From the NCBI GenBank assembly GCA_963701785.1, contig CAVPBC010000003.1, positions 481,556 to 545,555 of the forward strand: a stretch of 64,000 bases of DNA, written 5' to 3'. Below the pieces are notes generated by a model, which was given only the letters and a program-made list of their open reading frames with translations, did no database searches and was not told the DNA's origin. A program made the position numbers and the translations under genes. Positions 1-15,312 of the stretch are shown in pieces (positions within the stretch are counted from its first letter, which is position 1; every line of letters begins with the position of its first letter). The DNA is from an uncultured Bacteroidales bacterium. Lineage in GTDB: Bacteria; Bacteroidota; Bacteroidia; Bacteroidales; JAGOPY01.

Positions 1-894
1 GAAATGAACCGGACACTGGTCATGACGGAAGAAGTGCAGGGTGCTTCAAATATCGCCTCGGCCCATACGCTGGTTGATGGAAAACTTCAGGTCATCCCGC
101 ATTGCCGGATCGATAATATCGCCCCTGCTGCCAGCATCTCTTCATCGGTCAATGATATGAGCCATTGGCTCATTGCCCTGCTCGACAGCGGCCGATACAA
201 CGGGAAACAGGTCATTCCATGGCAGGCCATACGCAAAGCCCAATATCCAAGGTCTATCATCAGGCGTGCCGGGCACCCGTTCAATGCTTCCCATTATTCC
301 CTTTACGGATTGGGTTGGGACCTGCGTGATTATGAAGGGCGGGAAATCGTCTCCCATACCGGCGGGGTGGATGGTTTCGTGACTTCAGTAACCTTGTTGC
401 CGGAAGAAAACCTGGGCATTGTTGTCCTGACCAATACCGATATGAATGGCTTCTATGAAGCGCTCAAGTGGGAGATCATAGATGCCTACCTGGAGCTTCC
501 TTACCGCAATTACAGCCAGGTTTACATGAACCGGTATATGCCTGCTATGCAGAAAGACCTGGATATGGTTTCCTCCTGGAGAGATTCAGTTGAAATGAAA
601 TTGCCGATGAAAATCAAGCTTTCAAAATTTGAAGGCACTTATATGCATGAGGTTTACGGGAAGTCTTTTCTTAAAGCTGAAGGTGACCATCTGCTGATGA
701 CTTTGGAGCATCATCCTGACCTGACCGCGAAGCTTGAATATATCGGTAACGACCGTTTTCTTTGTACATACAGCCATCCTCTCTGGGGTATCAAAGTTTT
801 CCCTTTTGTGATCGAAGACGGGAAAGCCAGGTCGTTTACGCTCAGTGTCGCTGATTTCCTCGAATTTACAACTTATGAATTCATAAAGGAATAA
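1..894 (+). CDS. serine hydrolase of the beta-lactamase/PBP-like family, C-terminal part (5' end outside window)
   Basis: Frame is open from base 1 (track ORF 4..894). 'SHTGGVDGF' matches the KTG/HTG box of class-C beta-lactamase-like hydrolases and is followed by a ~130-aa C-terminal domain. The SxxK region is not in the window. Confidence 0.7.
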   Translation, partial: EMNRTLVMTEEVQGASNIASAHTLVDGKLQVIPHCRIDNIAPAASISSSVNDMSHWLIALLDSGRYNGKQVIPWQAIRKAQYPRSIIRRAGHPFNASHYSLYGLGWDLRDYEGREIVSHTGGVDGFVTSVTLLPEENLGIVVLTNTDMNGFYEALKWEIIDAYLELPYRNYSQVYMNRYMPAMQKDLDMVSSWRDSVEMKLPMKIKLSKFEGTYMHEVYGKSFLKAEGDHLLMTLEHHPDLTAKLEYIGNDRFLCTYSHPLWGIKVFPFVIEDGKARSFTLSVADFLEFTTYEFIKE

Positions 895-2971: not shown

Positions 2972-3028
2972 TCCGTCCTGCCTGGACAGGCAAAATTTAA
3001 TGTCCGGGCTGGGCGCTGAGTGTTCGCC
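2972..3028 (-). repeat. half copy of the ~160-nt attC-like repeat family (array-distal end)
   Basis: 'tccgtcctgcctggacaggcaaaatttaatgtccgggctgggcgctgagtGTTCGCC' aligns with the right arm of the copies at 7369, 8193, 11205 and 12143. The complementary arm is absent. Confidence 0.7.
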
Positions 3029-3040
3029 AGGCAATGTTGT

Positions 3041-3601
3041 TTAATTTCGCAATATGGTTCCATTTAACTGAATATGATCCCATTGTCCAATAGGTTCGTT
3101 CTGATAATAAACCTGCATTTCATCTATCCACTCTCCTTTATAATTCCTTTGTAATATCGACTCCTTTAGAATAATACTTGTTACTTCACCGCCCATGGTT
3201 CCTTGAAAAAAATCATACCAGGTACGGTAATGACCAAGACTATCAGGAATAGTGAAATTTTCATTTTCTAATAAATTAATTATCAGTAGTTTAGAACTAT
3301 CATATTTTTCTTCAATACGTAATGCATCTATTTTCAAATTGTGGAAGCTGTTTTTTGAGATCGAGTCTAATAAAATATTTACTGTTTTCAATAAATCATG
3401 ATCATTTTTAATTTTGATATAATGGTCAACAACTGGAACAAATTTATAGGAAATATTTACTGAATCAAATATTTCCCTGGTTGAATAAAGAGCAAATTCA
3501 TTATCAACCTTGGATAAACTGTTAGTATTACAACCGCAAATAAAAACTGTGATAATGAAATATAATAGGATAGATGTAAGAAATTGTTTCATCTTAAACA
3601 T
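3041..3601 (-). CDS. hypothetical lipoprotein
   Basis: 186-aa ORF with an N-terminal signal and a lipobox-like 'FICGC'. I recognise no family. Confidence 0.6.
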   Translation of the reverse strand: MFKMKQFLTSILLYFIITVFICGCNTNSLSKVDNEFALYSTREIFDSVNISYKFVPVVDHYIKIKNDHDLLKTVNILLDSISKNSFHNLKIDALRIEEKYDSSKLLIINLLENENFTIPDSLGHYRTWYDFFQGTMGGEVTSIILKESILQRNYKGEWIDEMQVYYQNEPIGQWDHIQLNGTILRN

Positions 3602-3603
3602 TG

Positions 3604-3909
3604 TTAGGCCACGTTTTCTTTATACTTTTTGATAACCTTGAATTCGTCTCTTTTGACTGAAATTTCTTCCTCTAGATCAAAGTCATCTTGAAGTCCGAGC
3701 CAGAATTTTGCAGAATTACCAAAATAATTACTTAACCTGAGCGCAGTGTCAGCTGTAATCCTTCTTTTCCCTTTCAAAATTTCACTAATCCTGTTTTGAG
3801 GAATATTAATGTCCTTCGATAATTTATAAGCAGAGATCTTTAAAGGGGTTAAAAATTCCTCAAGTAGAATTTCTCCGGGATGTATATTATTCAACTTTAC
3901 CATATTCAT
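3604..3909 (-). CDS. higA: HigA-family antitoxin (XRE HTH)
   Basis: 101 aa. 'HPGEILLEEFL..ISAYKLSKDINIPQNRISEILKGKRRITADTALRLSNYFGNSAKFWLGLQ' is the canonical HigA pattern. Confidence 0.9.
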   Translation of the reverse strand: MNMVKLNNIHPGEILLEEFLTPLKISAYKLSKDINIPQNRISEILKGKRRITADTALRLSNYFGNSAKFWLGLQDDFDLEEEISVKRDEFKVIKKYKENVA

Positions 3910-3914
3910 GCATT

Positions 3915-4091
3915 TTAATGATAATCAATTATTTCGACATTATATGAGTGCCCATTATCCCAATGAAAAATAATCCTCCATTGGTCATTAATACGTATGC
4001 TATGAAAATCTTTTAATTCTCCTTTGAGTTTCTCTAAATTATTAGAAGGCGGAATAATTAAATCATTCAAATTCAAAGAATTATTTAACAT
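3915..4091 (-). pseudogene. higB: 5'-truncated HigB (RelE-like killer protein) remnant
   Basis: My own translation gives 58 aa, below the track cutoff: MLNNSLNLNDLIIPPSNNLEKLKGELKDFHSIRINDQWRIIFHWDNGHSYNVEIIDYH. This matches the C-terminal two thirds of HigB toxins. The N-terminal ~30 aa are missing, with an in-frame TGA just upstream. It ends 5 nt before higA. Confidence 0.7.
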
Positions 4092-4107
4092 TCTGAGTTT
4101 TCTTCAA

Positions 4108-4125
4108 GCGCGCTCGTTACCACCC
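4108..4125 (-). repeat. 18-nt remnant of a 160-nt-family attC-like site plus the core of the next cassette
   Basis: 'gcgcgctcGTTACCACCC'. The 'gcgcgctcgtta' part is identical to the end of the copy at 11351-11360. The rest of the repeat and the higB 5' end are deleted. Confidence 0.6.
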
Positions 4126-4139
4126 GTTTTGATATGAGT

Positions 4140-4397
4140 CTAATCGTAATGAAACCTGCATTTAGCGATTTGAATCTCATCATTTACGTTCCTATATATC
4201 AATCGATGTTCTTCGGTAATTCTTCTGGACCAAAATCCCTGGTACTTATGTTTTAAAGGCTCAGGTTTTCCTAAACCGGAATAGTGGTTTCGCGAAATAT
4301 CTTTCAATAAATTATTTATTCTGGCCATTATCTTTTTATCGTTCTGCTGCCAATACAAATAATCTTCCCAGGACTCTTCGACAAAAACATATTTCAT
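4140..4397 (-). CDS. yoeB: YoeB/Txe-family toxin (mRNA interferase)
   Basis: 85 aa. 'WEDYLYWQQNDKK...GLGKPEPLKHKYQGFWSRRITEEHRLIYR' is the canonical YoeB pattern. It overlaps yefM by 4 nt. Confidence 0.92.
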   Translation of the reverse strand: MKYVFVEESWEDYLYWQQNDKKIMARINNLLKDISRNHYSGLGKPEPLKHKYQGFWSRRITEEHRLIYRNVNDEIQIAKCRFHYD

Positions 4398-4648
4398 GAC
4401 TCAATCAGATCTTTTTGAAACGATGATCTATTTTTTAATTTTTCAATAGCTGAATCTAACCTCTGTTCATTAATCTTAGATGATAATTCATGAGAGGTTG
4501 CCTTGAGCGAATTATATTCTTCTAAAGACATGATAACTACACCAGTGTCTTTTCCTCGGTTAATGATCAGTGTTTCAAAATTCCTGGTCACATTATCCAA
4601 ATACCGTTTAATATCTTTACGGAATTCGGAAATTGTCGTTGTTAACAT
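4394..4648 (-). CDS. yefM: YefM/Phd-family antitoxin
   Basis: The real start is Met48 of track ORF 4394..4789 ('MLTTTISEFRKDIKRYLDNV...VIMSLEEYNSL'). It is preceded by AAAGGAG. The upstream extension runs into the attC-like site. Confidence 0.9.
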   Translation of the reverse strand: MLTTTISEFRKDIKRYLDNVTRNFETLIINRGKDTGVVIMSLEEYNSLKATSHELSSKINEQRLDSAIEKLKNRSSFQKDLIES

Positions 4649-4663
4649 ATTATAGCTCCTTTC

Positions 4664-4693
4664 TGTACAAAATAAGGTACAAATATACGTACA
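4664..4693 (-). promoter_or_regulatory. putative yefM-yoeB operator/promoter
   Basis: Three GTACA cores at 12-nt spacing (TGTACA 4664-4669, GGTACA 4676-4681, CGTACA 4688-4693), 16-45 nt upstream of yefM. The minus strand reads TATATTTG (4680-4687), matching the Bacteroidetes -7 consensus TAnnTTTG. TGTACA-type palindromes are the known YefM-YoeB operator core in E. coli. Confidence 0.5.
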
Positions 4694-4743
4694 AATAAGT
4701 AAACTATTGCATAATTTGGAAAAAATATATTTGATCCCAAAAT

Positions 4744-4877
4744 GGGTGGTAACGGTTACGTGTATGAGTAGTGGTGGAGTACGGGGCACTTTCCTGTCAA
4801 ACTACACCGAAATTGATGCGAGGTCGAATGCTCGAATACGCTACAAGCTCCGCCATTACTTATACACGATGTTATTC
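4744..4877 (-). repeat. attC-like imperfect palindrome (unique sequence)
   Basis: GGGTGGTAAC...GTTATTC. The arms 'gtgtatgagtagtggtggagt' and 'gctccgccattacttatacac' are near-complementary. Confidence 0.7.
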
Positions 4878-4987
4878 CCCTGTAATTTTATATCACTTTT
4901 TATTATTTTTAGCAGTTCCCGTTTTATGTGCACAAAATACTATCCGGAGTATCTGTTTGATAAAAGGTCCTCGCTAATCACAATCAT

Positions 4988-6670
4988 TTATTTTAGCAAT
5001 ACGACACCAATCAATAGTCCGGCAAAGAGAATACCTATACTGATCAATATCCACCACCAGAGTTTACCCCATTTAGGAATCATAATTTCCCCGTCACCAT
5101 CTGTAAGAATAGTCCATGATCGAAATTCTTTTTTTAAGGCCCAGCGTTGAAAAAGGAAAATTAATAATCCGCCCGGCAGAGCGCCCAGAACGACAATTGC
5201 CCACCAGGTCATCACGGGCAAGTATGACAGCGGCAATAAAAGAGACATATTCAGACTCATATTCACCAGTGGTAAAGCCACTGGTGTTATCCCTCCCAGA
5301 CCTATGAACGTTGTAACCAATACCAGAGGAAGGCATTGTAATAAAAATAGTCCGGCATTCTTATTGCAGACAGGAGCCAGAAAAACCATATGGAACACCA
5401 ATCCCAGAATTATTGGCAGGCTCAACATCACGGACACTTGAATTTGCCAACTAACATTCCCGGATAACATACTTAACATAAGAATTGCAATCGACACGGT
5501 GTATGAGACCACGACAGGTATAAGATTTCCAATCGTTTCAATGATGACTTTCTGACAGAAAGTCGTTTTACATCTCTTTAATGCGAAAAATCCTGCCATC
5601 AAAGCAATCGGACCTAGAAACACCACAGCGGTTATCCAAAAACGGAATCCCCTATTATATAGCCCCCTGTTGAGGAACAACAAAATCAAACTTATCAACA
5701 GGATTACAGGCCAGCTTATACCGACAATCCAGTTTGTCCGGAGGTTAGCCCGGGCCGAATGATATCGCCTGGCAGCTTCCTGCTGCACGTCCTCAGGAAA
5801 AAGTTTGCTTAGTGGCCCCGGTTCACGGGGATTGGATAGTTCGTTTTTAACATTTAACACAACAGGATGATCATATTGGAAGAAAAAATAGATATAGACA
5901 ACTCCATGAACCAAATCGGCTACCATTGTTTCAATCGTCCAGCTGGAACCTTTTTCCATATGGACGGCATCCATAATAGCTGTTGCATCCCTGAAACTTA
6001 ATGGACCCTCTTTTTCAAGCAAGGGGCCCAGCAATTCATAAGCTTTGTCATAACGCCAGCAAGGATATCCAAAACTATTGGAATGATTGGCTACATTGAA
6101 ATTTGTGGACACCAGGAATCCATCACCCGGTGGTTTTCGTGTGAACACCATTTCGCCATCTTCACCAGCACTTATAATAACAGCGTCACCCGTGGCATCT
6201 GCAAAATGCAGTTGGTCGTGCATATACGGATAGTGTTGATGGAGATTGGCCCACCTGATAACTTCCTCAACCCTGGAGCATTCATGCATTATCTGCATGA
6301 TATAATGATGGTAGTATTCTCCTTTAACCAGGATTCGCTCTTTGTGCGGATTGATATCAAATCTTGGTAATCCGTTTGCATCGTATGCCAATCCTTTCTC
6401 GTTTACCCCCTGTTGGGGATTATCCGGTGTACCAATCCATATTACTCCGTATTTGGAAGAGTCGCCCGGTTCCACCCAATAGTAGGAATCCGGATTGATG
6501 TAATCGTCATTTCCTCCGAAAAAAACACTATCTCCCTTTGATATAGTAATTATCGAACATCCGGAGTGAAAAGTCTTGGTATCAGAAGGTTCATCTGAAT
6601 AAATTTGTTGAGCACAGATTTCTAATACCGCAATTAGTATAAATAAATTAATGAGTAGAAGTTTCTTCAT
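4988..6670 (-). CDS. Ntn-hydrolase (peptidase C45 / choloylglycine-hydrolase-like) domain fused to a polytopic membrane domain
   Basis: 560 aa with a signal peptide. 'HSGCSIITI' is a candidate nucleophile Cys, followed by 'GGNDDY' and 'GVNEKGLAYD' as in C45/C59 Ntn hydrolases. From residue ~310 there are about 8 hydrophobic helices. Confidence 0.6.
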   Translation of the reverse strand: MKKLLLINLFILIAVLEICAQQIYSDEPSDTKTFHSGCSIITISKGDSVFFGGNDDYINPDSYYWVEPGDSSKYGVIWIGTPDNPQQGVNEKGLAYDANGLPRFDINPHKERILVKGEYYHHYIMQIMHECSRVEEVIRWANLHQHYPYMHDQLHFADATGDAVIISAGEDGEMVFTRKPPGDGFLVSTNFNVANHSNSFGYPCWRYDKAYELLGPLLEKEGPLSFRDATAIMDAVHMEKGSSWTIETMVADLVHGVVYIYFFFQYDHPVVLNVKNELSNPREPGPLSKLFPEDVQQEAARRYHSARANLRTNWIVGISWPVILLISLILLFLNRGLYNRGFRFWITAVVFLGPIALMAGFFALKRCKTTFCQKVIIETIGNLIPVVVSYTVSIAILMLSMLSGNVSWQIQVSVMLSLPIILGLVFHMVFLAPVCNKNAGLFLLQCLPLVLVTTFIGLGGITPVALPLVNMSLNMSLLLPLSYLPVMTWWAIVVLGALPGGLLIFLFQRWALKKEFRSWTILTDGDGEIMIPKWGKLWWWILISIGILFAGLLIGVVLLK

Positions 6671-6736
6671 TTTGGTTTTCTATTTTACTCATTTATTTTT
6701 ATTATCAATCATTCTCGGTGTTTGTTTTTTTATGAG

Positions 6737-6864
6737 GCATAACGTTTCGCTTGCAGATTCCGTGGCGGCTCGCGCAGCAGATTCTCTTCGGAAAGATAAT
6801 GATTTTGCGGTGAAAGAACTCAAAATTAGTTTAATGCCGTCATGGAATTTGCAAGCTGTTACCA
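6737..6864 (-). repeat. attC-like imperfect palindrome (unique sequence)
   Basis: GCATAAC...GTTACCA. The arms 'gcttgcagattccgtggcggc' and 'gccgtcatggaatttgcaagc' are near-complementary. Confidence 0.75.
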
Positions 6865-6884
6865 ATAGCCAGAATTTTGAATAA

Positions 6885-7340
6885 TTAACTACTTAAAGAT
6901 TTGATAATTGTTTCGACTAAAATTGTGTACTCATCTTCGCTTTGATTTATAAAACTTATATGGTTAGCTTTAATTACTTTTTCTTCGATATCCAATAGGA
7001 TATTTTTGAATTTCATGTGATCAATTTTATTCCATAAAACAGGAATTATAGGGCGATTAGAACTATTAAACATTCTAAATTCCCAATTACACCATTCGCT
7101 ATGAAGCCAATCAGGTGAAAGAAGTACAAGCAAAATTTTTGAATTATTTAGATGTGATTCGAGTATGGGTTTAAAATAATTTTTATGCGCATTTGATGTT
7201 ATATTGTCTTTGTCGTAGAATATCGAAATGTTTGAGTCTATTATTTTGAGCTTTTTTTCTAACTTATCGGCAAATTGTTTTACCGCATTAAAATTTTTCT
7301 CCTTTGACCAAGTATAACTCACGAATATTTCAATTGACAT
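6885..7340 (-). CDS. stand-alone TIR-domain protein
   Basis: 151 aa. 'IFVSYTW' (beta-A), 'FYDKD' and 'ILLVLLSPDWLHSEWCNWEF' (S-x-WC-x-x-E with the conserved Glu) are TIR hallmarks. There is no fused domain. Confidence 0.8.
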   Translation of the reverse strand: MSIEIFVSYTWSKEKNFNAVKQFADKLEKKLKIIDSNISIFYDKDNITSNAHKNYFKPILESHLNNSKILLVLLSPDWLHSEWCNWEFRMFNSSNRPIIPVLWNKIDHMKFKNILLDIEEKVIKANHISFINQSEDEYTILVETIIKSLSS

Positions 7341-7368
7341 AGTTACAGGTTATTTTTTGACTGGTTAT

Positions 7369-7529
7369 TGGTAACGCTCAGCGCAGCGCCCTGGGCCGGG
7401 TTAATTTGCACGGGCAGGCGGGCGCAAGCTAGCTCAAAGTTACTAATTCAAAGATCAACGTGACAATACCGCCCGCCTGACCGGGCAAAGTTTTTAGCGT
7501 CCGGCCTGGGCGATGCGCGAATGTTACCG
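7369..7529 (-). repeat. attC-like site, 160-nt family copy
   Basis: TGGTAAC gctcagcgcagcgccctgggccggg ... ccggcctgggcgatgcgcgaat GTTACCG. The long arms are complementary with bulges. Confidence 0.8.
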
Positions 7530-7685
7530 GCCGGCCATAGATCGTTGGAATTGCGCACTTCTTTTGCGAAAGTATTCGATAATCTGCTCTGGAGTCATAC
7601 CAGAAATTTCTTCAGTGATTTTCGCCCTGATGTCACGCATCAATTTGACTGAGTCGAAGGTTTTATTTAATGTATCAGTCTTCAT
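7524..7685 (-). CDS. small protein downstream of and overlapping the PIN gene; putative antitoxin partner
   Basis: 53 aa from 'MKTDTLNKTFDSVKLMRDIRAKITEE..'. Its ATG overlaps the PIN stop (gattATGAAGACTGA). Its stop codon TAA is the TTA of core GTTACCG. The function is inferred from context only. Confidence 0.45.
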   Translation of the reverse strand: MKTDTLNKTFDSVKLMRDIRAKITEEISGMTPEQIIEYFRKRSAQFQRSMAGR

Positions 7686-8136
7686 AATCGATAATATCTT
7701 TAGGTGAACGAATTTCAAGGGTTGGATAACCGTTTAAAATATTGATTGCATTATACCCCCTGATTCTTTTAAGATTGACGATGTGCTTAAAATTCCAGGA
7801 AACTAAAACGTCAATATTATTGATTGTGGCCAAAGCAATATGTAAACAGTCATCTAAACTGGCTTGACCAACTACATTTTCTTTAATATATTCCTGAGCC
7901 AATGAAATTACTTCTGGACTAATAGACACAATCTCAGGTTGAAGATTCAAATTATTAATCAGATCTTTAACATTTTGAGGGGCTCGAATCAATTCACTCT
8001 GAGTCAGGTCTGAGATAACCAATTCAAAATCATGATCTTGGAATTTTTTGAACAATCTTTTTGATTCGTCCTCAAATTCAGGATCGAAGTAACCTCCAAT
8101 GACCGAAGTGTCGATATAGATTTTTAGCTTTCTCAT
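7675..8136 (-). CDS. PIN-domain ribonuclease (VapC-like toxin)
   Basis: 153 aa. 'KIYIDTSVIGGY' (first acidic residue), 'DDCLHIALA' and 'LVSWNFKHI' fit the PIN fold signature. Confidence 0.8.
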   Translation of the reverse strand: MRKLKIYIDTSVIGGYFDPEFEDESKRLFKKFQDHDFELVISDLTQSELIRAPQNVKDLINNLNLQPEIVSISPEVISLAQEYIKENVVGQASLDDCLHIALATINNIDVLVSWNFKHIVNLKRIRGYNAINILNGYPTLEIRSPKDIIDYED

Positions 8137-8192
8137 TGATACAAAGATACGAAATATTGATCGAGCTAATATTGTAATATTATCTGGCTGGC

Positions 8193-8352
8193 CGGTAACG
8201 CTCAGCGCAGCGCCCTGGGCCGGGTTATTTGGCCGGGCAGGCGGGCGCCCGCTAGCTCAAAGTTACTAAATCAAAGATCAAAGTGACAATACCGCCCGCC
8301 TGACCGGGCAAAATTTTTAATGTCCGGCCTGGGCGCTGCGCTTCCGTTAGGC
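8193..8352 (-). repeat. attC-like site, 160-nt family copy
   Basis: CCGGTAAC...GTTAGGC, near-identical to the copies at 7369, 11205 and 12143. Confidence 0.8.
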
Positions 8353-9246
8353 CCCGATTGTAATTCCAGCAGATAGTAGATTTGAGTAAAATTCTAGTTT
8401 GTTTAAAGTCGAGCTAGGCAACGTATTATATTTAATTTCAGTTGCTTTAAAAGTACTTTTAAAAAGTACTATAAACTTAGTTAATAATAGCTTAGATAAG
8501 AGCATAATAAGGTGACCATGGGAATTATTTGATGAATGTCTAAGATCCATTCCATCTAAATTCATTATGCTTAATCCTGTAGTATGTGCGTGAGCCGAAA
8601 GTAGATTATAAAGACTTTTCGAATGATCTGCGTGGATTTTAGAAAAATCCATTAATTTATTCCAACCATTAAATAATCTAGGCTCACCTTTTTCAATTAT
8701 TTGCTTTTGCTGATTTGCTGTGAACTTTTTAAAATAATCTGATTCAGTAATTTTCTTTCTGAACAATCGTATTTCTTCTTGATCTTTAAGTTTCTTTTCT
8801 TTTAAGAATTCTCCTTTGTGATAATATTCATTTCTTGAAATTAATCCACTGTAAATCCAATTGTAGTATCTGAATTGTATTTCATCTTCAGTTTTTGGTT
8901 GACAATAAATGAAATCGAAAATTAAAAAATTTTCAAGTTGCGCTCTTAGTAAGATGTAAAGACCAGAAATATCAAGAAATTTAGCCTTTAATTCAATGTA
9001 TTTTGAATCAATATCTTGACCCTTTAATAACTCAAGGATGGAATTACAATTTAATATGGTTTTTGTTGCTAATGTACTGATACGGTTTTTATATTCAGGT
9101 ATTTCAATTTTGCTTGTTATCAAATGAGTTTGAAGCATTATAAGTATATCCACAAATTGCAAACTCTCTTCTGCACCATCTTTAATGTTTTGCCTAAGAT
9201 GCATCAAATAGACACTTAAAATATCATGATTCTTTTGCGAAATCAT
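8347..9246 (-). CDS. hypothetical protein (cassette cargo)
   Basis: 299-aa AT-rich ORF, helical and K/E-rich. I recognise no motif. Its stop codon lies inside core GTTAGGC. Confidence 0.6.
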   Translation of the reverse strand: MISQKNHDILSVYLMHLRQNIKDGAEESLQFVDILIMLQTHLITSKIEIPEYKNRISTLATKTILNCNSILELLKGQDIDSKYIELKAKFLDISGLYILLRAQLENFLIFDFIYCQPKTEDEIQFRYYNWIYSGLISRNEYYHKGEFLKEKKLKDQEEIRLFRKKITESDYFKKFTANQQKQIIEKGEPRLFNGWNKLMDFSKIHADHSKSLYNLLSAHAHTTGLSIMNLDGMDLRHSSNNSHGHLIMLLSKLLLTKFIVLFKSTFKATEIKYNTLPSSTLNKLEFYSNLLSAGITIGA

Positions 9247-9262
9247 AAATAATACAATTGGG

Positions 9263-9394
9263 GCCTAACGGTTTGCAGCTATGCCCTGTAGCCGTTTTAC
9301 GGGGTTCGTCACTGTCAATCGGCATAATGTTTCTGCGGGGTACGCTGTTTCAACTTGCACTTTTATAGGCTATTGGGCATAGTTGCTGTTATGC
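9263..9394 (-). repeat. attC-like imperfect palindrome (unique sequence)
   Basis: GCCTAAC (a perfect RYYYAAC) ... GTTATGC. The arms 'gcagctatgccctgtagcc' and 'ggctattgggcatagttgc' are complementary. Confidence 0.8.
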
Positions 9395-9401
9395 ACAGAA
9401 T

Positions 9402-10118
9402 TTAATATATCTCTTTCTTTTTAATTTTTAATCCACTTAGTTCATAAAGCATCATACATAATTCTTTTATCTCTGATCCTTTTCCACTTTGTCTATAAAC
9501 CATATTGTATTTGCCATTTTTTCTCGCTTCAAAAATCCACTCTGCACCATCCATTATTATCATATTACTCCATTCAACTGTAGGTATTTCCCAGAAGTTA
9601 AGATTATAGATTTTGCTTATTACATCATCCCATTGACTTTCTGTTATTTGTATTGTATCATTTTGAACTAATTTTCCAGGACTATATCCGCCTGCTCCGT
9701 TTGTTCTCTTCACAAACAGCAAGTATTCGTTGTTCCTTTTTTCAAGTCGAATAGAAATGGGATTATGAAATGTTCGTAGCCAAGGAAAACGATATGTTTC
9801 AAAATCATAGTCTTTGTATAATTTTGGTTCGTTAAGCCCTGTCAATTGTTTAGAAAACCATGTATTTACAAACAATGCTAATTCTTTGCTTTTTTGATAG
9901 AATAAACTATCCTTTTCTTGCCTATAAACATTAACAGTATCAATTAAAAGTCGTGTTGGAAAATATAAAAGATTTGTGTCTTTACAGTAATACTGGTCAG
10001 TCACATCTATTGTGTCTTTCCCATTAATAAAAGTCATTTTTTGTCCTTGAACATTTAGTATCAAGTTCATCAAAAAAAGAATCAAAATAAGTTTAGTAGG
10101 TCTTATAATTTTGTGCAT
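9402..10118 (-). CDS. hypothetical secreted protein (cassette cargo)
   Basis: Start is at Met54 of track ORF 9402..10277 ('MHKIIRPTKLILILFLMNLILNVQG', signal-like). The upstream 53 codons lie inside the repeat. The ATG sits inside core GTGCATAAC. Confidence 0.6.
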   Translation of the reverse strand: MHKIIRPTKLILILFLMNLILNVQGQKMTFINGKDTIDVTDQYYCKDTNLLYFPTRLLIDTVNVYRQEKDSLFYQKSKELALFVNTWFSKQLTGLNEPKLYKDYDFETYRFPWLRTFHNPISIRLEKRNNEYLLFVKRTNGAGGYSPGKLVQNDTIQITESQWDDVISKIYNLNFWEIPTVEWSNMIIMDGAEWIFEARKNGKYNMVYRQSGKGSEIKELCMMLYELSGLKIKKKEIY

Positions 10119-10431
10119 AACGCTCCAGCGCAGCGCCCTGGCCCGGGTTATTTGGCCGGCCAGGCGGCGGCGTGAGGATGTAAAGTTAGATATTAGTAAT
10201 GCAAATTGCAAACAGATCCCTCGCTGCGCTCGGGATGACGCGGTTGACGGATGAAAACAGAAGCGGCGCGGCACCAAGGAAGAATGTAGTTCCGACTTTA
10301 CTTTGCGCCGCGCCGCTCTGGTTTTGATCCCCTCAAGTCGTCATCCCGAAGCGCAGCGAGGGATCTTTTGCGCCCCGCCTGACCGGGCAAAATTTTTAGC
10401 GTCCGGGCTGGGTGCTGCGCGTTCGTTATGT
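10115..10431 (-). repeat. attC-like site with 160-nt-family arms and an enlarged loop
   Basis: The arms match the family. The usual 44-nt loop is replaced by ~200 nt containing a second hairpin element. Confidence 0.7.
10214..10366. repeat. nested palindromic element inside the attC-like loop
   Basis: 'agatccctcgctgcgctcgggatgacg' (10214-10240) pairs with 'cgtcatcccgaagcgcagcgagggatct' (10339-10366). There is an inner stem 'cagaagcggcgcggc' / 'gcgccgcgccgctctg'. Confidence 0.7.
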
Positions 10432-10493
10432 GTAGCAGAGCATTAAAAATTAAGTCAGGCTTAGTTCTTGATTTTCTAATTCGATTTTGAGCT

Positions 10494-10775
10494 TTACGTT
10501 AGTTCCAGTGCATGAAATATCTTGATTACCGTTCCTATAGTCATATTCCTGCTATTTTTTTCAAGTTTGGAAATTTCGGATTTATTGACCCCAATTAATT
10601 GTCCTAATTCCTCCTGGGTCATGTTTCTCTCTTTCCTTGTTTTTTTAATCATTTCCCCAAGGATCTCCATTTTTAAATCAAATTCATATTGATCCCGATC
10701 AGGGGTACCACGTTTACCAATATATTTGTCCTTGAATTGGTCCAGTGTGATTCCTTGTTGAGCTTGCTTTGCCAT
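10494..10775 (-). CDS. XRE-family HTH antitoxin
   Basis: 93 aa. 'MTQEELGQLIGVNKSEISKLEKNSRNMTIGTVIKI' is an HTH_XRE. It lies 4 nt downstream of the toxin gene. Confidence 0.8.
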   Translation of the reverse strand: MAKQAQQGITLDQFKDKYIGKRGTPDRDQYEFDLKMEILGEMIKKTRKERNMTQEELGQLIGVNKSEISKLEKNSRNMTIGTVIKIFHALELT

Positions 10776-10779
10776 TGTA

Positions 10780-11115
10780 TTATGCTTTAAAATATTCTAA
10801 TCTAATCTTCAATGCTTTTTGAATTTCTGACTTTGGAGTTTTTTGTGATTTTTTAATAAAGCCATGAGTACAAATTACCAATGTGTTTTGATTATCAGTT
10901 TTATCCCAGAATGCTAATAATCTATAATCATTTGATTGAAAGCTTGTTCTAAATTCCCATATATCATCATTCAATTTCTTGAATAAATTTGGATCGAGCA
11001 TAATTCGTGCTTTATCAATGTTGAAAACAATTTTGTTTCTTGCTTTAATGTCTAAGGTAGTCAGAAAGATCTCGACTTCACTTAAAAAGACAACATTAAA
11101 ATGCTCTATCATCAT
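10780..11115 (-). CDS. RelE/HigB-superfamily toxin (phage Gp49-like)
   Basis: 111 aa. 'DIWEFRTSFQSNDYRLLAFWDK....LVICTHGFIKKSQKTPKSEIQKA' is the Gp49/HigB-like pattern. Confidence 0.8.
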   Translation of the reverse strand: MMIEHFNVVFLSEVEIFLTTLDIKARNKIVFNIDKARIMLDPNLFKKLNDDIWEFRTSFQSNDYRLLAFWDKTDNQNTLVICTHGFIKKSQKTPKSEIQKALKIRLEYFKA

Positions 11116-11204
11116 TATTTAAGTTGAAATGCAAAAATAGTAAAGTTTCCATATAAAGCAACAATTGGATTAAAAAAAGGAAAATTTAATACTGCCCTGT
11201 TACA

Positions 11205-11363
11205 CATAACGCTCAGCGCAGCGCCCTGGGCCGGGTTAATTTGGCCGGGCAGGCGGGCGCCCGATAGCTCAAAGTTACAAAATCAAAGATCAATGTGACA
11301 ATACCGCCCGCCTGACCGGGCAAACTTTTAATTTCCGGCCTGGGCGCTGCGCGCTCGTTATGT
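11205..11363 (-). repeat. attC-like site, 160-nt family copy
   Basis: ACATAAC...GTTATGT. It is most similar to the copy at 12143. Confidence 0.8.
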
Positions 11364-11375
11364 GTAGCCTTTTTG

Positions 11376-12110
11376 TCATTTCGCGGTAATTGTGAAAGTC
11401 CCGCCTAACAAAAGTTCATAGTTGTCTTTTGTTTTGCAAAGGGCTTTCCATTCAGTTATCGAGTTATCGTCAAGAAAAAGAGAGATTATTCTTTCTCTAT
11501 CCATTAATGGTTTTATTTCAAAGTCTGTCGCTGTTTCGAGCTCCGCTAATTTTCTATCTAAAATGTCAAACACTGTTTCATTGTCTAATTCAGATACAGC
11601 TAAAATGTGATTTTTTCTCAACGGCATAAAATATGGAAAGTCGCCAAACATATTATTAGTTGTGTCCCATTTATAAAGAGAGATCAAATCAAATTTTGTT
11701 AGTCTTTTAATTGAATTCTGCCTATCCAATTCAGGAACTAATTTTTTAAATCTTGCGAATTCATTAATTGTCAGCCAAAAGGATCCTTTTTGTCGCATTG
11801 AATAAGGTGGAGCATAGTCTCCTCTGTTAGCTTCATCGAATAGTTTTTGAAATGCCGGAATAAAAAATATAAAATTGTCACATTGTCTAATGGCGACCCA
11901 ATTTCCAGAAGCACATTGGTAGATTCCACACTCGTTGCAGATTATAGTTTGAAAAATTTGTTCATCTTCAATTTCCCCGTCTAATGCCTCAACTATATTT
12001 ATAAAATCTTCGCCATCAACTGTCAAAACTGTGAAATTCGCCATTCCTTGTCCAGAAGAGGTAAAGTCATATTGTTTTTTATAAGTTCCGAAGTTTGTTG
12101 ATGTCCACAT
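11376..12110 (-). CDS. hypothetical protein (cassette cargo)
   Basis: 244-aa intact ORF with a Cys cluster 'CNECGIYQCASGNWVAIRQC'. I recognise no family. Confidence 0.6.
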   Translation of the reverse strand: MWTSTNFGTYKKQYDFTSSGQGMANFTVLTVDGEDFINIVEALDGEIEDEQIFQTIICNECGIYQCASGNWVAIRQCDNFIFFIPAFQKLFDEANRGDYAPPYSMRQKGSFWLTINEFARFKKLVPELDRQNSIKRLTKFDLISLYKWDTTNNMFGDFPYFMPLRKNHILAVSELDNETVFDILDRKLAELETATDFEIKPLMDRERIISLFLDDNSITEWKALCKTKDNYELLLGGTFTITAK

Positions 12111-12142
12111 TATGTTATTCTAGAGCCAATATAAAAGGTTAC

Positions 12143-12302
12143 ACATAACGCTCAGCGCAGCGCCCTGGGCCGGGTTAATTTGGCCGGGCAGGCGGGCGCC
12201 CGATAGCTCAAAGTTACTAAATCAAAGATCAACGTGACAATACCGCCCGCCTGACCGGGCAAAATTTTAATGTCCGGCCTGGGCGATGCGCGTCCGTTAT
12301 GT
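12143..12302 (-). repeat. attC-like site, 160-nt family copy
   Basis: ACATAAC...GTTATGT. Confidence 0.8.
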
Positions 12303-13197
12303 GTAGCCTTTTTGTCATTTCGCGGTAATTGTGAAAGTCCCGCCTAACAAAAGTTCATAGTTGTCTTTTGTTTTACCAAAGTGGCATTACATTCAGTTAC
12401 TGAATTATAGTCAAGAAAAAGAGATGATTATTCCTCTTCATTGCTATCCATTAATGGTTTTATTTCAAAGTCTGGTTCGCTGTTTCGAGCGATCCGCTAA
12501 TTTCATCTATTTGCTTAAAGATAGGTCAATCGACACTGTTTCAATATGTCATAATTCAGCATAGCAGCTAAATGTTATTTCTCAATGGCATAAAACTATG
12601 GAAAGTCGCCAAACATTTTATTAGTTGTAATCCCATTTATAAAGAGAGATCATAATCAAATTTTGTTAGTCATTTTAATTGAATTCTGCCTATCCAATTC
12701 AGGAACTAATTTTTTAAATCTTGCGAACCTTCATTAATTGTCAGAAGCCGTTAAAAGGATCGCTTTTATTGTTGCAAGAGTTGAATAAGGTGGATGCCTA
12801 TAGTCTCAACACTGTTAAAAACCACTGCTTCAATCGATCCATATTTTTGACAATAGCCAAAAATAGCTGAGTGAAAAAGATAGCGATTAAAATGAATTTC
12901 GTCACATTGTCTAATGCGCCATGACGGCTGCATATTCCCAGAAGCACATTGTGTACGATTCTCACTGTCAATCGTTGCAGAATGTATCAGCGTGAAAAAT
13001 TTGTTCAACTTGCAATTTTACAGTCTAATGGCCATCAACTATATGTTATCACAAAATCTTAACCATCATACTGTCAAAACTGTGAAATTCGCCATTCACT
13101 TGTTCATGAAGCAGGTAAAGTCATATTGTTTTTTATAAGCTCCGAAGTTTGTTGATGTCCACATTATGTCTATTCTAGAGCCAATATAGAAGGTTAC
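12303..13197 (-). pseudogene. decayed paralogous copy of cassette 11376..12110
   Basis: The first ~75 nt and last ~80 nt are (near-)identical to cassette 11364-12142. The interior is alignable by eye but carries many substitutions and 1-10-nt insertions (909 vs 793 nt). Only short ORF fragments remain. Confidence 0.8.
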
Positions 13198-13301
13198 ACA
13201 TAACGGTTGGCCGCTAAAACCAGTGCGTGGAACATATTAGGGATCGCATTAAGCGATTCCGAGGTATTGACCAGCATTAGGTTTTTAGCGGCATGTTAGC
13301 T
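13198..13301 (-). repeat. attC-like imperfect palindrome (unique sequence, 104 nt)
   Basis: ACATAAC ggttGGCCGCTAAAACC ... GGTTTTTAGCGGCatg GTTAGCT. Confidence 0.7.
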
Positions 13302-13544
13302 GATGTATTCCATTGTCTTTTTATAAATGTTTGAATACCATGAAAATTTCAGAATATATCCTCTTAAATATTGATCTCTATCAACTAAGGACTGCAAAAA
13401 CAATCACCCACAAGCAATACAAATGGATTATCAGAAGGATCCAGTAAAACTACTCTCCAAAGCATAAAGCCAAAGTATAATTTTGGTTCGTAACCGTCAA
13501 TTGTCAGACAAAGCACAAAGTATTACAAGCATTGCTGTTTGCCT

Positions 13545-13758
13545 TTATAAACCATTTTTGATAAATGGTTTATATTTGTTTTGCCTACAAGTATAAGGTA
13601 GCATGTAAAAGCCGAATGGTATTGCAATATCGGCAAAGTAGCTATGAAAATGGCTATGTACAGTATTCACTGCAGCCCATATCGTGTCTCCAATTATAAA
13701 GAGGGCTGCAATTGTAAGTAACGTGATAATCTACTATTAGTTTATTTTGTTGTTTCAT
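13545..13758 (-). pseudogene. frameshifted small membrane-protein gene (decayed cassette)
   Basis: My own translation: 'MKQQNKLIV' then a frame change into 'IITLLTIAALFIIGDTIWAAVNTVHSHFHSYFADIAIPFGFYMLPY..'. The unit is bounded by GTTAGCTGATG (13295) and ..TATGCTAAC (13790). Confidence 0.35.
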
Positions 13759-13880
13759 ATATTTTGAAAAGGAATCATATCTATGCTAACGTTTGTGCAA
13801 ACGCACTGGTCTTGTTATATCATATCCATGCGGTTAAAGAAGTCATGTTACACGCCATCAATTGGTGTGTATCTTGACCT

Positions 13881-14181
13881 TTATACTGCCCTGGATTCCA
13901 ACGATGCCATAAGTGAAATGTCTTCATCTATTTTTTTCCAATGTATCCCTTAGCCCGACGGAGTAACCTCAAAATCCTGTAAATCCTCTTCTGTAGCTAC
14001 CACAAGGCGTGGCGACAAATCCCTTAAATTATATTTATTTTCCTTACCATCGACTTTAAGAATCAGCCATGGCGTGGATAAATGTACTTGATCTATGCTT
14101 AAAATAGATTTCATTGCTCTAAAGATAATTAAAAATTTCATACCATCTCCTCCAACCGGATTCTCTTAAAATAGATGGCAT
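13881..14181 (-). pseudogene. remnants of a DUF4160/DUF2442 gene pair
   Basis: 'MPSILRESGWRRW..' (from 14181) resembles a DUF4160 N-terminus and stops after 20 codons. Track ORF 13950..14141 ('LILKVDGKENKYNLRDLSPRLVVATEEDLQDFEVTPSG') is DUF2442-like. An in-frame TAA at 13950-13952 is followed by 'GIHWKKIDEDISL', the expected continuation. Confidence 0.5.
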
Positions 14182-14208
14182 AAACTGCTTAATCTTTGCT
14201 CCAATAAT

Positions 14209-15312
14209 TCATTCCAAATCCAAATTATCAAACGGACTTTTTATCTTATCTAGCCCTCGCTTGGTTATATGTGTGTAAATCTCTGTTGTCTTAGGACTCT
14301 GGTGACCCAATAATGATTGTATATAACGTAAATCTGTACCATGCTCAAGCAAATGGGTCGCAAAACTGTGCCTTAAGGAATGTACTGTTGCTTTCTTTTT
14401 AATACCGGCTTTGTGTTTGGCCAGCCTGAATACTTTCTGAACACTGGTCGGCGAATATTGCCCACCGAATTGCCCTTCAAACAACCATTCCCTTGGTTTG
14501 TACATCTTGAAATATTCACGCAATAAGGTCAATACCCTTACTGACAATATCGTTACCCTGTCCTTTTGACCCTTTCCCTGTTTTACAATCACCAGCATCC
14601 TTTTAGAATCAATATCATGGATCTTTAAATTGATCATCTCACCCAATCTTAGGCCTGTTGAATAAATTAGTGATAACATGGCCCTGTGTTTCAGGTTTTT
14701 TGCACATTTTAACAGCATGGCTACCTCCTCCTCACTCAATACATTCGGCAAAACTTTCGGCTTTTTCGGCCGCTGGATGTAATATGTCTTCACGGGCCGG
14801 CCCAAAACCTGCTCGTAGTAAAATTTGATGGCATTGATCGACTGGTTCTGGTAGGAGATGCTCACATCCCTCTTTTCAATTAGGTATAGCAAATACTCCC
14901 TGACCTGCTCATCGGTTATCTTTTCGGGATCCAGGTCCTTGTAATAAACAAGAAATTCCTGCATCATCGACCTGTAGGTCCGGATCGTATTCGGACTGTA
15001 ATTCTTCAGCAACATCGTTTTCACAAATTCTTCCGGGACCAAATCTACCTTCCCCTCTTCCCCTTTTCCCCTCTTCTCCTGGTCTCCCGGTCTCCCGGTC
15101 TCCTCTTCAAACGTCAGGAATCCTTCAAATTTCAGATTCAGCTTCTCCACGCCACCCGCCTGCGTTGCCACATGCCAGCACCTCTCCTTCGGGTTCCACC
15201 TCGCCCCTGGAATGGTTTTAATTAAATCAATAATCTCCCTGTCGTAAGGGAAATGGAGCTTTAACCGCTCTTTGCCTTCTATAAGGCCTTTTTCAATAGT
15301 TATCTTTTTCAT
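14209..15312 (-). CDS. tyrosine site-specific recombinase (Xer-like catalytic domain with an extra ~95-aa N-terminal domain)
   Basis: 367 aa. 'STGLRLGEM' (Arg I), 'KGQKDRVTIL', 'HSLRHSFATHLLEHGTDLRYIQSLLGH' (H-x-x-R, H) and 'TEIYTHI' (catalytic Tyr). The N-terminus has 'IPGARWNPKERCWHV'. An octamer-repeat-encoded linker gives 'ETGRPGDQEKRGKGEEGK'. Confidence 0.9.
   Translation of the reverse strand: MKKITIEKGLIEGKERLKLHFPYDREIIDLIKTIPGARWNPKERCWHVATQAGGVEKLNLKFEGFLTFEEETGRPGDQEKRGKGEEGKVDLVPEEFVKTMLLKNYSPNTIRTYRSMMQEFLVYYKDLDPEKITDEQVREYLLYLIEKRDVSISYQNQSINAIKFYYEQVLGRPVKTYYIQRPKKPKVLPNVLSEEEVAMLLKCAKNLKHRAMLSLIYSTGLRLGEMINLKIHDIDSKRMLVIVKQGKGQKDRVTILSVRVLTLLREYFKMYKPREWLFEGQFGGQYSPTSVQKVFRLAKHKAGIKKKATVHSLRHSFATHLLEHGTDLRYIQSLLGHQSPKTTEIYTHITKRGLDKIKSPFDNLDLE

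Follow-up and report, generated by a model that had tools for sequence, protein, structure and literature searches.

We analyzed a 64,000-nucleotide stretch of DNA (the window) from an uncultured Bacteroidales bacterium (GenBank assembly GCA_963701785.1, contig CAVPBC010000003.1, positions 481,556 to 545,555 of the forward strand). The gene of interest lies on the minus strand at 4988..6670 and is a single unbroken open reading frame (ORF) of 560 codons, with its ATG at 6670 and its stop codon at 4988-4990. A preliminary description of the locus, made from the sequence alone, had reported an ORF at these coordinates without naming a strand; the ORF proved real and uninterrupted, and a plus-strand reading was ruled out by the abundant stops with which that strand is riddled across the interval. 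We refer to the encoded 560-amino-acid protein as P0001; other P numbers denote relatives, and L numbers denote the genome loci of relatives. On the basis of its sequence and of full-length homologues at 25 to 89% identity, P0001 comprises a signal peptide, a propeptide, an N-terminal nucleophile (Ntn) hydrolase domain, a linker helix, and a seven-helix membrane domain.

The possibility that two genes had been fused by an assembly or sequencing error can be regarded as practically negligible. The same continuous frame occurs in hundreds of independent assemblies (NCBI, ENA, JGI, and Logan) over this range of identity, and the window's own genome (4.47 Mb in 4 contigs) carries one copy of the gene with no internal stops. 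Because the full-length architecture recurs in more than 700 clusters (at 90% identity) and at 79 distinct genome loci, the ORF is not the join of two genes by sequencing error that had been named as a potential refutation. The first 37 residues (6560..6670, minus strand) form a predicted signal peptide (about residues 1 to 21) and a short propeptide that ends in HSG directly before Cys38, and residues 1 to 36 have low predicted local distance difference test (pLDDT) values in the structural model described below. The signal peptide claimed earlier is borne out by an N terminus of MKK plus a 15-residue hydrophobic stretch and by the signal peptides of homologues, of which distant ones have lipoboxes (LTAC and LSGC).

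Residues 38 to 292 (5795..6559, minus strand) were assigned to the Ntn hydrolases on the basis of profile matches, fold matches, and conserved residues. The best sequence-family match was NCBIfam NF040521 (C45_proenzyme), with 44 bits (E = 1.7e-11; residues 14 to 237 on model positions 84 to 282) against a cut-off of 85 bits. Pfam PF02275 (CBAH) matched residues 1 to 320 with 19.5 bits (E = 8e-4; curated cut-off, 20.4), and Pfam PF03417 (AAT, peptidase family C45) matched with 16.5 bits (E = 7e-3; gathering cut-off, 23.2 bits). Distant full-length homologues (P0149, P0146, P0151, and others) scored 27 to 39 bits with Pfam AAT, over the cut-off. Against solved CBAH chains, the profile of the family reached E values of 0.009 to 0.05 at best; its best sequence matches among solved structures were the penicillin V acylases (PVAs) 5j9r and 4wl2 (E of about 0.01 to 0.02). 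A phmmer search of P0001 against PDB sequences returned chance matches only. Since the scores fall under the curated C45 and CBAH cut-offs, the domain forms a distinct subfamily of that clan, between C45 and C59.

We built an AlphaFold2 model of P0001 on 26 diverse homologues. The model was confident (mean pLDDT, 85.9; predicted TM score [pTM], 0.75), with pLDDT mostly above 90 over residues 38 to 292, and it has the four-layer alpha-beta-beta-alpha Ntn fold, matching more than 860 chains at a Z of ≥8 in structural comparison with VIA-align. The nearest solved fold was that of choloylglycine hydrolase and PVA (family C59, PF02275; 3hbc/6ufy and 3pva of B. sphaericus), with a Z of 22.8 to 24.7 over about 243 residues; the highest value was for the Bacteroides thetaiotaomicron bile-salt hydrolase (BSH) 3hbc (root mean square deviation, 3.0 over 243 residues). 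The PVAs 5j9r and 4wl2 followed at 23.4 to 23.8, isopenicillin-N acyltransferase (AAT) 2x1d at 20.6, and NAAA 6dy0 and acid ceramidase 5u7z at 19.1 to 19.3. Foldseek likewise matched the model to PVA and BSH (E = 6e-11; probability, 1.00). The structural alignments all begin at model residue 38, which superposes on the catalytic cysteine of the known enzymes (Cys2 of BSH, Cys1 of PVA, Cys103 of AAT, and Cys143 of acid ceramidase). The P0001 domain differs from BSH and PVA in having 17 to 20% identity and a compact size (about 255 versus about 320 residues), and those enzymes are soluble, whereas P0001 has a signal peptide, a propeptide, and a C-terminal seven-helix domain.

The catalytic residues are retained as well. 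Among 26 diverse members of the family, C38, N54, D56, N90, D97, D158, R178, N190, N192, R206, H237, and D252 are invariant or nearly so, and C38 is kept in at least 90% of them as well as in eight of eight relatives in which the N-terminal domain is fused differently. In BSH, the oxyanion-hole and auxiliary residues are Asp21, Asn82, Asn175, and Arg228. A profile alignment places N90 (in NEKGL) and N190 (in TNFN) on the two oxyanion Asn motifs of BSH; judged by position, D56 and R206 are the likely counterparts of Asp21 and Arg228. D56, N190, and R206 are invariant across family members and differently fused relatives alike. The Gly37|Cys38 context resembles Gly102|Cys103, the self-cleavage context of AAT. 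Unlike that enzyme, P0001 lacks a long alpha-subunit before the cysteine, which stands about 16 residues after the signal peptide, and it is predicted to be exported and membrane bound.

These profile, fold, and residue data identify residues 38 to 292 as a predicted exported Cys-nucleophile Ntn hydrolase of the C45/C59/C89 clan, in agreement with the preliminary description, which had proposed a C45/choloylglycine hydrolase-type domain and a candidate nucleophile in HSG|CSIITI. That motif (residues 35 to 44) and the two others quoted there, GGNDDY (52 to 57) and GVNEKGLAYD (88 to 97), are all present in P0001, and the domain matches Ntn-hydrolase families both by profile and by fold, so the alternative that it would miss them did not hold. 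The proposed likeness held for peptidase C45 and choloylglycine hydrolase but did not extend to the classical acyl-homoserine-lactone (AHL) acylases of the PvdQ type, which are Ser-Ntn enzymes of another family. The lipids, AHLs, bile salts, and antibiotics suggested there as possible substrates are conjecture.

The C-terminal 250 or so residues of P0001 are strongly hydrophobic. The model has seven long helices there (residues 308-333, 342-366, 370-403, 408-435, 439-473, 483-513, and 534-559) rather than the roughly eight predicted earlier, and a separate model of residues 296 to 560 had a pLDDT of 91.3 and a pTM of 0.89. Within residues 308 to 366 (5573..5749, minus strand), an arginine-rich loop separates the first membrane helix from a second hydrophobic helix, which is kinked at the invariant G353-P354. 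The pair resembles the two-helix PLDc_N motif, which was matched in 5 of 31 family members (among them P0142 and P0165) immediately before a DUF4396 domain. In the model, the last membrane helix (residues 534 to 559; 4994..5071, minus strand) follows a K/R-rich loop (510 to 533) containing a small beta-hairpin.

Residues 369 to 516 (5123..5566, minus strand) form a four-helix, divergent DUF4396 domain. The Pfam DUF4396 model (PF14342) did not match P0001 itself, and Pfam found nothing in its membrane domain. PF14342 was nevertheless matched in 9 of 31 family members, 7 of them over the cut-off (best E = 1.7e-17; relatives scored 36 to 62 bits), and hhalign aligned residues 369 to 516 of P0001 with canonical DUF4396 (probability, 80%; E = 1.4e-5). 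Common to the family and to canonical DUF4396 are a WRxA entry motif and a tryptophan before the last helix. In canonical DUF4396 proteins of the same phylum, an HMA domain forms the N terminus, the first helix contains an invariant CxxxC, and ME..N and a C-terminal Cys-His complete the motif set, which was judged on 10 canonical proteins. P0001, in contrast, has no HMA domain and has three additional helices and a predicted periplasmic enzyme. The fusion family also lacks CxxxC, ME..N, and the C-terminal Cys-His, and the aligned positions are variable or hydrophobic. Invariant residues of the membrane domain are limited to G353-P354, P419, and three tryptophans, with no invariant charge. The fusion architecture, which the preliminary description did not recognize, is real and conserved, and its membrane part can be recognized as a divergent DUF4396 domain plus a PLDc_N-like hairpin.

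We also inspected canonical DUF4396 loci of Bacteroidota (L089, L090 to L094, L096, and L097); these encode HMA fusions with a membrane CxxxC, and in three related loci a YHS-domain gene is adjacent to the DUF4396 gene. Canonical DUF4396 proteins are probably metal handling because of their HMA domain, CxxxC, ME..N, and Cys-His motifs and their YHS-domain neighbors, and DUF4396 probably represents a family of heavy-metal transporters or carriers, although a statement of such a role was not found in the literature searched. In the only paper mentioning DUF4396 in the literature searched, a metal-resistance island in Acidihalobacter is flanked by DUF4396 genes (PMC7760498).

Structure and profile comparisons of the membrane domain gave no closer relationship. 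Foldseek returned no match to the PDB at an E value of ≤0.001, an ESM Atlas feature search gave no usable match, and a profile search at near lengths returned only members or fragments of the same fusion family. Membrane domains of the ABC-2, ABCG, and ABCA types, CcmB, and Rce1 matched the model at a Z of 5 to 6, and the best shape match in the ESM Atlas was an ABC-2 permease (TM score, 0.44). The Z values lie within helical-bundle noise. We claim neither a new fold nor an ABC-2 relationship.

The fusion is widespread at low frequency. With clustering at 90% identity, a word-indexed search returned 766 clusters. Nearly all of the best 120 were full length, and where they were named, the annotation was almost always hypothetical. 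An exhaustive search gave 1,333 representatives (at 50% identity), among them full-length fusions with as little as 29% identity and numerous proteins of 330 to 380 residues with the N-terminal domain only; overall, full-length homologues reach down to 25 to 29% identity. For a survey of loci, we took one genome per species, in which 204 stretches encode a relative, and used the best 79 distinct loci. Their hosts are Bacteroidales (Rikenellaceae and Prolixibacteraceae), Chloroflexota (Anaerolineae), Ignavibacteriota, KSB1, Gemmatimonadota, Sumerlaeota, Calditrichota, Marinimicrobia, and one deltaproteobacterium. All 79 loci come from uncultured metagenome-assembled genomes. The fusion is kept full length in hundreds of assemblies of at least six phyla. 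Among 400 genomes sampled evenly from the window's phylum, the full fusion occurred in only one other genome and the N-terminal domain alone in three. The taxonomic survey that the preliminary description had called for therefore yields a multiphylum distribution: the gene is rare within any one phylum, spread over several, and patchy.

Other fusions of the Ntn domain were found among the relatives. P0121 is a full-length relative with the same membrane domain and an additional N-terminal metallo-beta-lactamase-fold (MBL) domain. Elsewhere, the Ntn relative is joined to a PAF-acetylhydrolase-type lipase (P0132), an AT3/HGSNAT membrane acyltransferase (P0252), or TPR repeats (P0232), and the differently fused relatives (n = 8) retain the catalytic residue set. 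Judging from these domain combinations, the alternative fusions favor acyl-group chemistry at or in the membrane without naming a substrate. In a search for a split-gene form, two stand-alone N-domain homologues (L085 and L086) were followed by genes unrelated to the membrane domain, and P0177 proved to be a fragment at a contig end. PADLOC gave no match to P0001, and a literature search for peptidase C45 combined with transmembrane and Bacteroidetes found no description of the fusion.

The preliminary description also placed the gene on a mobile cassette at 4871..6743, and the borders bear this out. These coordinates are the inner core sites of two attC-like imperfect palindromes between which the gene lies. 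The upstream palindrome (6739..6862, minus strand; core GTTAT at 6743-6739) belongs to the preceding TIR cassette, and the cassette's own 128-nucleotide attC-like site (4748..4875, minus strand; ATAAC ... GTTAC, with ATAAC at 4875-4871) folds at −37.9 kcal/mol. With its own attC-like site included, as in the usual definition, the cassette spans about 4749..6741. The GTTAT core opens the 73-nucleotide 5′ leader of the cassette (6671..6743, minus strand). Nine loci of other genomes (members of a clade at ≥64% identity) share this conserved leader, at about 75 nucleotides and starting with GTTRT, and differ from one another upstream of it. Nucleotide homology to an 85%-identical gene on a 7.2-Mb metagenome chromosome begins at the GTTAT core (6743) and ends at 4886, shortly before the attC-like site of the cassette itself. 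The cassette reading is supported because homology stops at the core sites and because the shared leader starts from GTTRT. Like an integron cassette, the unit looks promoterless, is bounded by imperfect palindromes with TAAC/GTTA cores (RYYYAAC/GTTRRRY-like), and belongs to a co-oriented array adjoining a tyrosine recombinase; it differs from one in its large size (about 2 kb) and in a recombinase that scores under the TIGR02249 cut-off.

Taken together, the gene probably encodes an exported, membrane-tethered Cys-Ntn acyl-amidase that acts on a hydrophobic amide, carried as an accessory cassette gene; we hold this reading with moderate confidence. The precursor would be exported through its signal peptide, and self-cleavage of the Ntn domain between Gly37 and Cys38 would expose the catalytic cysteine, as in BSH, PVA, AAT, NAAA, and acid ceramidase. 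A covalent link to the seven-helix C-terminal domain would then keep the mature enzyme at the cytoplasmic membrane, on its outer side. Since no charged or polar residue of the membrane domain is invariant, this domain most likely anchors the enzyme and serves as a platform or groove on the membrane side that offers a hydrophobic, membrane-partitioned N-acyl amide to the active site, rather than acting as a catalyst or ion transporter. Candidate substrates would be amide-linked lipids or acylated small molecules. The lipid and acyl theme of the N-domain relatives (the PAF-acetylhydrolase-type lipase, AT3, and MBL fusions) is consistent with such an enzyme. NAAA and acid ceramidase (family C89), Cys-Ntn amidases whose substrates are lipid amides of membranes, offer a functional analogy for an Ntn enzyme at work on a membrane surface; they differ in being eukaryotic lysosomal enzymes that touch the membrane by amphipathic helices rather than through an integral domain, and their sequence relation to P0001 is at the clan level.

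A more specific version of this reading is offered tentatively, as possible but short of probable. P0001 may represent a previously undescribed class of integral-membrane Ntn amidases in which a fold of the metal-transporter type (DUF4396), having lost its metal ligands, was recruited as a lipid-facing substrate-access module of a periplasmic Cys-amidase. The substrates of such enzymes might be amide-linked lipids of the membrane, for example sphingolipids or N-acyl amino-acid lipids, or else other lipidated amides, and part of their spread among phyla of uncultured anaerobes might be by integron-like cassettes.

Several observations weigh against the membrane-tethered acyl-amidase. P0001 scores under the curated cut-offs of all three families (PF03417, PF02275, and NF040521). 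The membrane domain is without a convincing solved relative, its best Z of 6.9 (VIA-align against 48,161 chains) being at the level of helical-bundle noise. Family-wide counts of lysine plus arginine are 2.2 in loop 1-2, 3.1 in loop 2-3, 1.1 in loop 4-5, and 3.8 in loop 6-7, with loops 3-4 and 5-6 near zero; for an external Ntn domain, this pattern would break the positive-inside rule unless helix 342-366 is nonspanning, whereas the model shows 342-366 as a single helix broken only at G353. With 342-366 nonspanning, the N terminus of the DUF4396 part would lie inside, the same orientation that a cytoplasmic HMA domain implies for the canonical proteins. Finally, neighboring PF00144 hydrolases and tricorn/PD40 peptidases speak as strongly for peptide-like or beta-lactam-like substrates as for lipids, if not more so.

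These neighbors would suit an amidase in a peptide-like or beta-lactam-like catabolic set, which would remove an acyl side chain (as does penicillin V acylase) or cleave a small peptide amide in the periplasm beside the PF00144 and tricorn/PD40 enzymes, with the membrane domain serving as an anchor only. We surveyed the neighbors in 83 loci, many of them from related Bacteroidales, so that the counts are not independent. About 23 of these loci, including L058 and L066 of Chloroflexota, encode a beta-lactamase-family serine hydrolase (PF00144) no more than 4 kb away, in most cases on the strand of the gene, and tricorn/S41 and PD40 peptidases are encoded nearby in about 11 to 15. The PF00144 association looks enriched because the window's genome has just 8 PF00144 genes in 4.47 Mb. 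The MBL domain added in P0121 and the position of PVA and BSH as the nearest solved folds also agree with this alternative. However, PF00144 and MBL are very broad hydrolase families, the conserved seven-helix domain exceeds the needs of an anchor (single-helix or soluble relatives exist), and in the window the gene is alone on its cassette. We consider a role of this kind rather unlikely. The PVAs that gave the best matches of the family profile raise a further alternative, a quorum-quenching AHL acylase. These PVAs (5j9r and 4wl2) are periplasmic enzymes from Pectobacterium and Agrobacterium that cleave long-chain AHLs. The matches are weak, though, and no better than those to bile-salt hydrolases; the surroundings are without quorum-sensing genes, and the hosts are mostly uncultured anaerobes of sediment and soil, which makes AHL cleavage doubtful.

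The fold is also compatible with transfer in place of hydrolysis, since the C45 enzyme isopenicillin-N acyltransferase is a transferase. Here, the acyl group held as a thioester at Cys38 would go to an amine on the noncytoplasmic side, with the donor or the acceptor supplied by the membrane domain; P0252, which keeps the catalytic set in fusion with an AT3/HGSNAT domain, points the same way. An acyltransferase nevertheless seems unlikely, as the DUF4396-like domain has no invariant polar residue for acyl transfer and acyl-CoA is not available in the periplasm. It is very improbable that the membrane domain retains the presumed metal-handling role of DUF4396 and couples metal transport or sensing to amidase activity. 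The canonical proteins of the same phylum, with their HMA domain, invariant CxxxC, and YHS-gene neighbors, and the genes flanking the Acidihalobacter island would favor such a coupling, but the fusion family lacks the CxxxC, ME..N, and C-terminal Cys-His motifs, and P0001 goes undetected by the Pfam DUF4396 model.

To our knowledge, all characterized Cys-Ntn amidases, a group that includes bile-salt hydrolases, penicillin acylases, acid ceramidase, and NAAA, are soluble or merely peripherally associated with the membrane. The architecture described here is real, conserved, and uncharacterized, and it joins a known enzyme class to a module homologous to a probably metal-related domain minus its signature motif. 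An integral-membrane version of the Cys-Ntn enzymes in hundreds of uncultured genomes points to a candidate reaction at the bacterial membrane surface, and DUF4396 gains a second, nonmetal context. The cassette of about 2 kb provides an example of between-genome nucleotide homology that ends at cassette core sites, and P0001 is a defined target for enzyme assays.

No partner gene was universal across the 83 surveyed loci, and recurring neighbors lie mostly on the same strand as the gene. Besides the hydrolases and peptidases described above, these were SnoaL_3 proteins (14 loci), OmpR-type response regulators (11 loci), and PEMT/ICMT-type membrane methyltransferases (8 loci). The window itself encodes a PF00144 protein with a DUF3471 domain at 4-894 (plus strand), about 4 kb from the gene and outside the array, a proximity that may be coincidence.

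In the locus of the 85%-identical homologue (L001/L012, 7925-9784), the gene directly follows kdpD-kdpE and retains the GTTAT core and the leader. An inverted-repeat search in L001 found no clear attC-like site between the homologue and the next gene (a glyoxalase). The downstream genes in L001 (DUF4932, ParE, HTH, and nitroreductase) look cassette-like, and an attC-like repeat resembling those of the window lies at 14471-14581. A scan of the 83 related loci for TAAC...GTTA hairpins gave 147 matches in the real and 254 in the shuffled sequence and is therefore uninformative on attC sites in these loci.

The cassette belongs to an array at 2972-15312 of the window, in which co-oriented minus-strand cassettes adjoin a co-oriented tyrosine recombinase. 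The array genes (YefM-YoeB, TIR, PIN, HTH and Gp49-HTH pairs, and several unknowns) are spaced by imperfect palindromes with TAAC/GTTA cores, among them four near-identical 157-nucleotide attC-like sites (12300-12144, 11361-11205, 8350-8194, and 7527-7370, minus strand). The recombinase, at 14209-15312, passes NF040815 (site-specific tyrosine recombinase/integron integrase; 235.9 versus a cut-off of 220) and scores 223.9 with the integron-integrase model TIGR02249, whose cut-off is 265. We call the array integron-like because the recombinase is at most a candidate IntI. The ORF has a GC content of 42%, compared with 36% for the array as a whole and 44% for the window.

Within the loop of the upstream attC-like site, TAATTTTG occurs at 6828-6821 on the minus strand, directed into the gene and about 150 nucleotides before its ATG. 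As read from the sequence, it matches the Bacteroidetes −7 box TAnnTTTG and may be a promoter element for the gene. Further up the array, the same stretch of about 50 nucleotides (GTTATGTGTAACCTT.TATATTGGCTCTAGAATA..ACATAATGTGGACATC) occurs after two successive core sites (12100-12150 and 13150-13205, minus strand); two neighboring cassettes therefore begin alike, the upper one without a long ORF.

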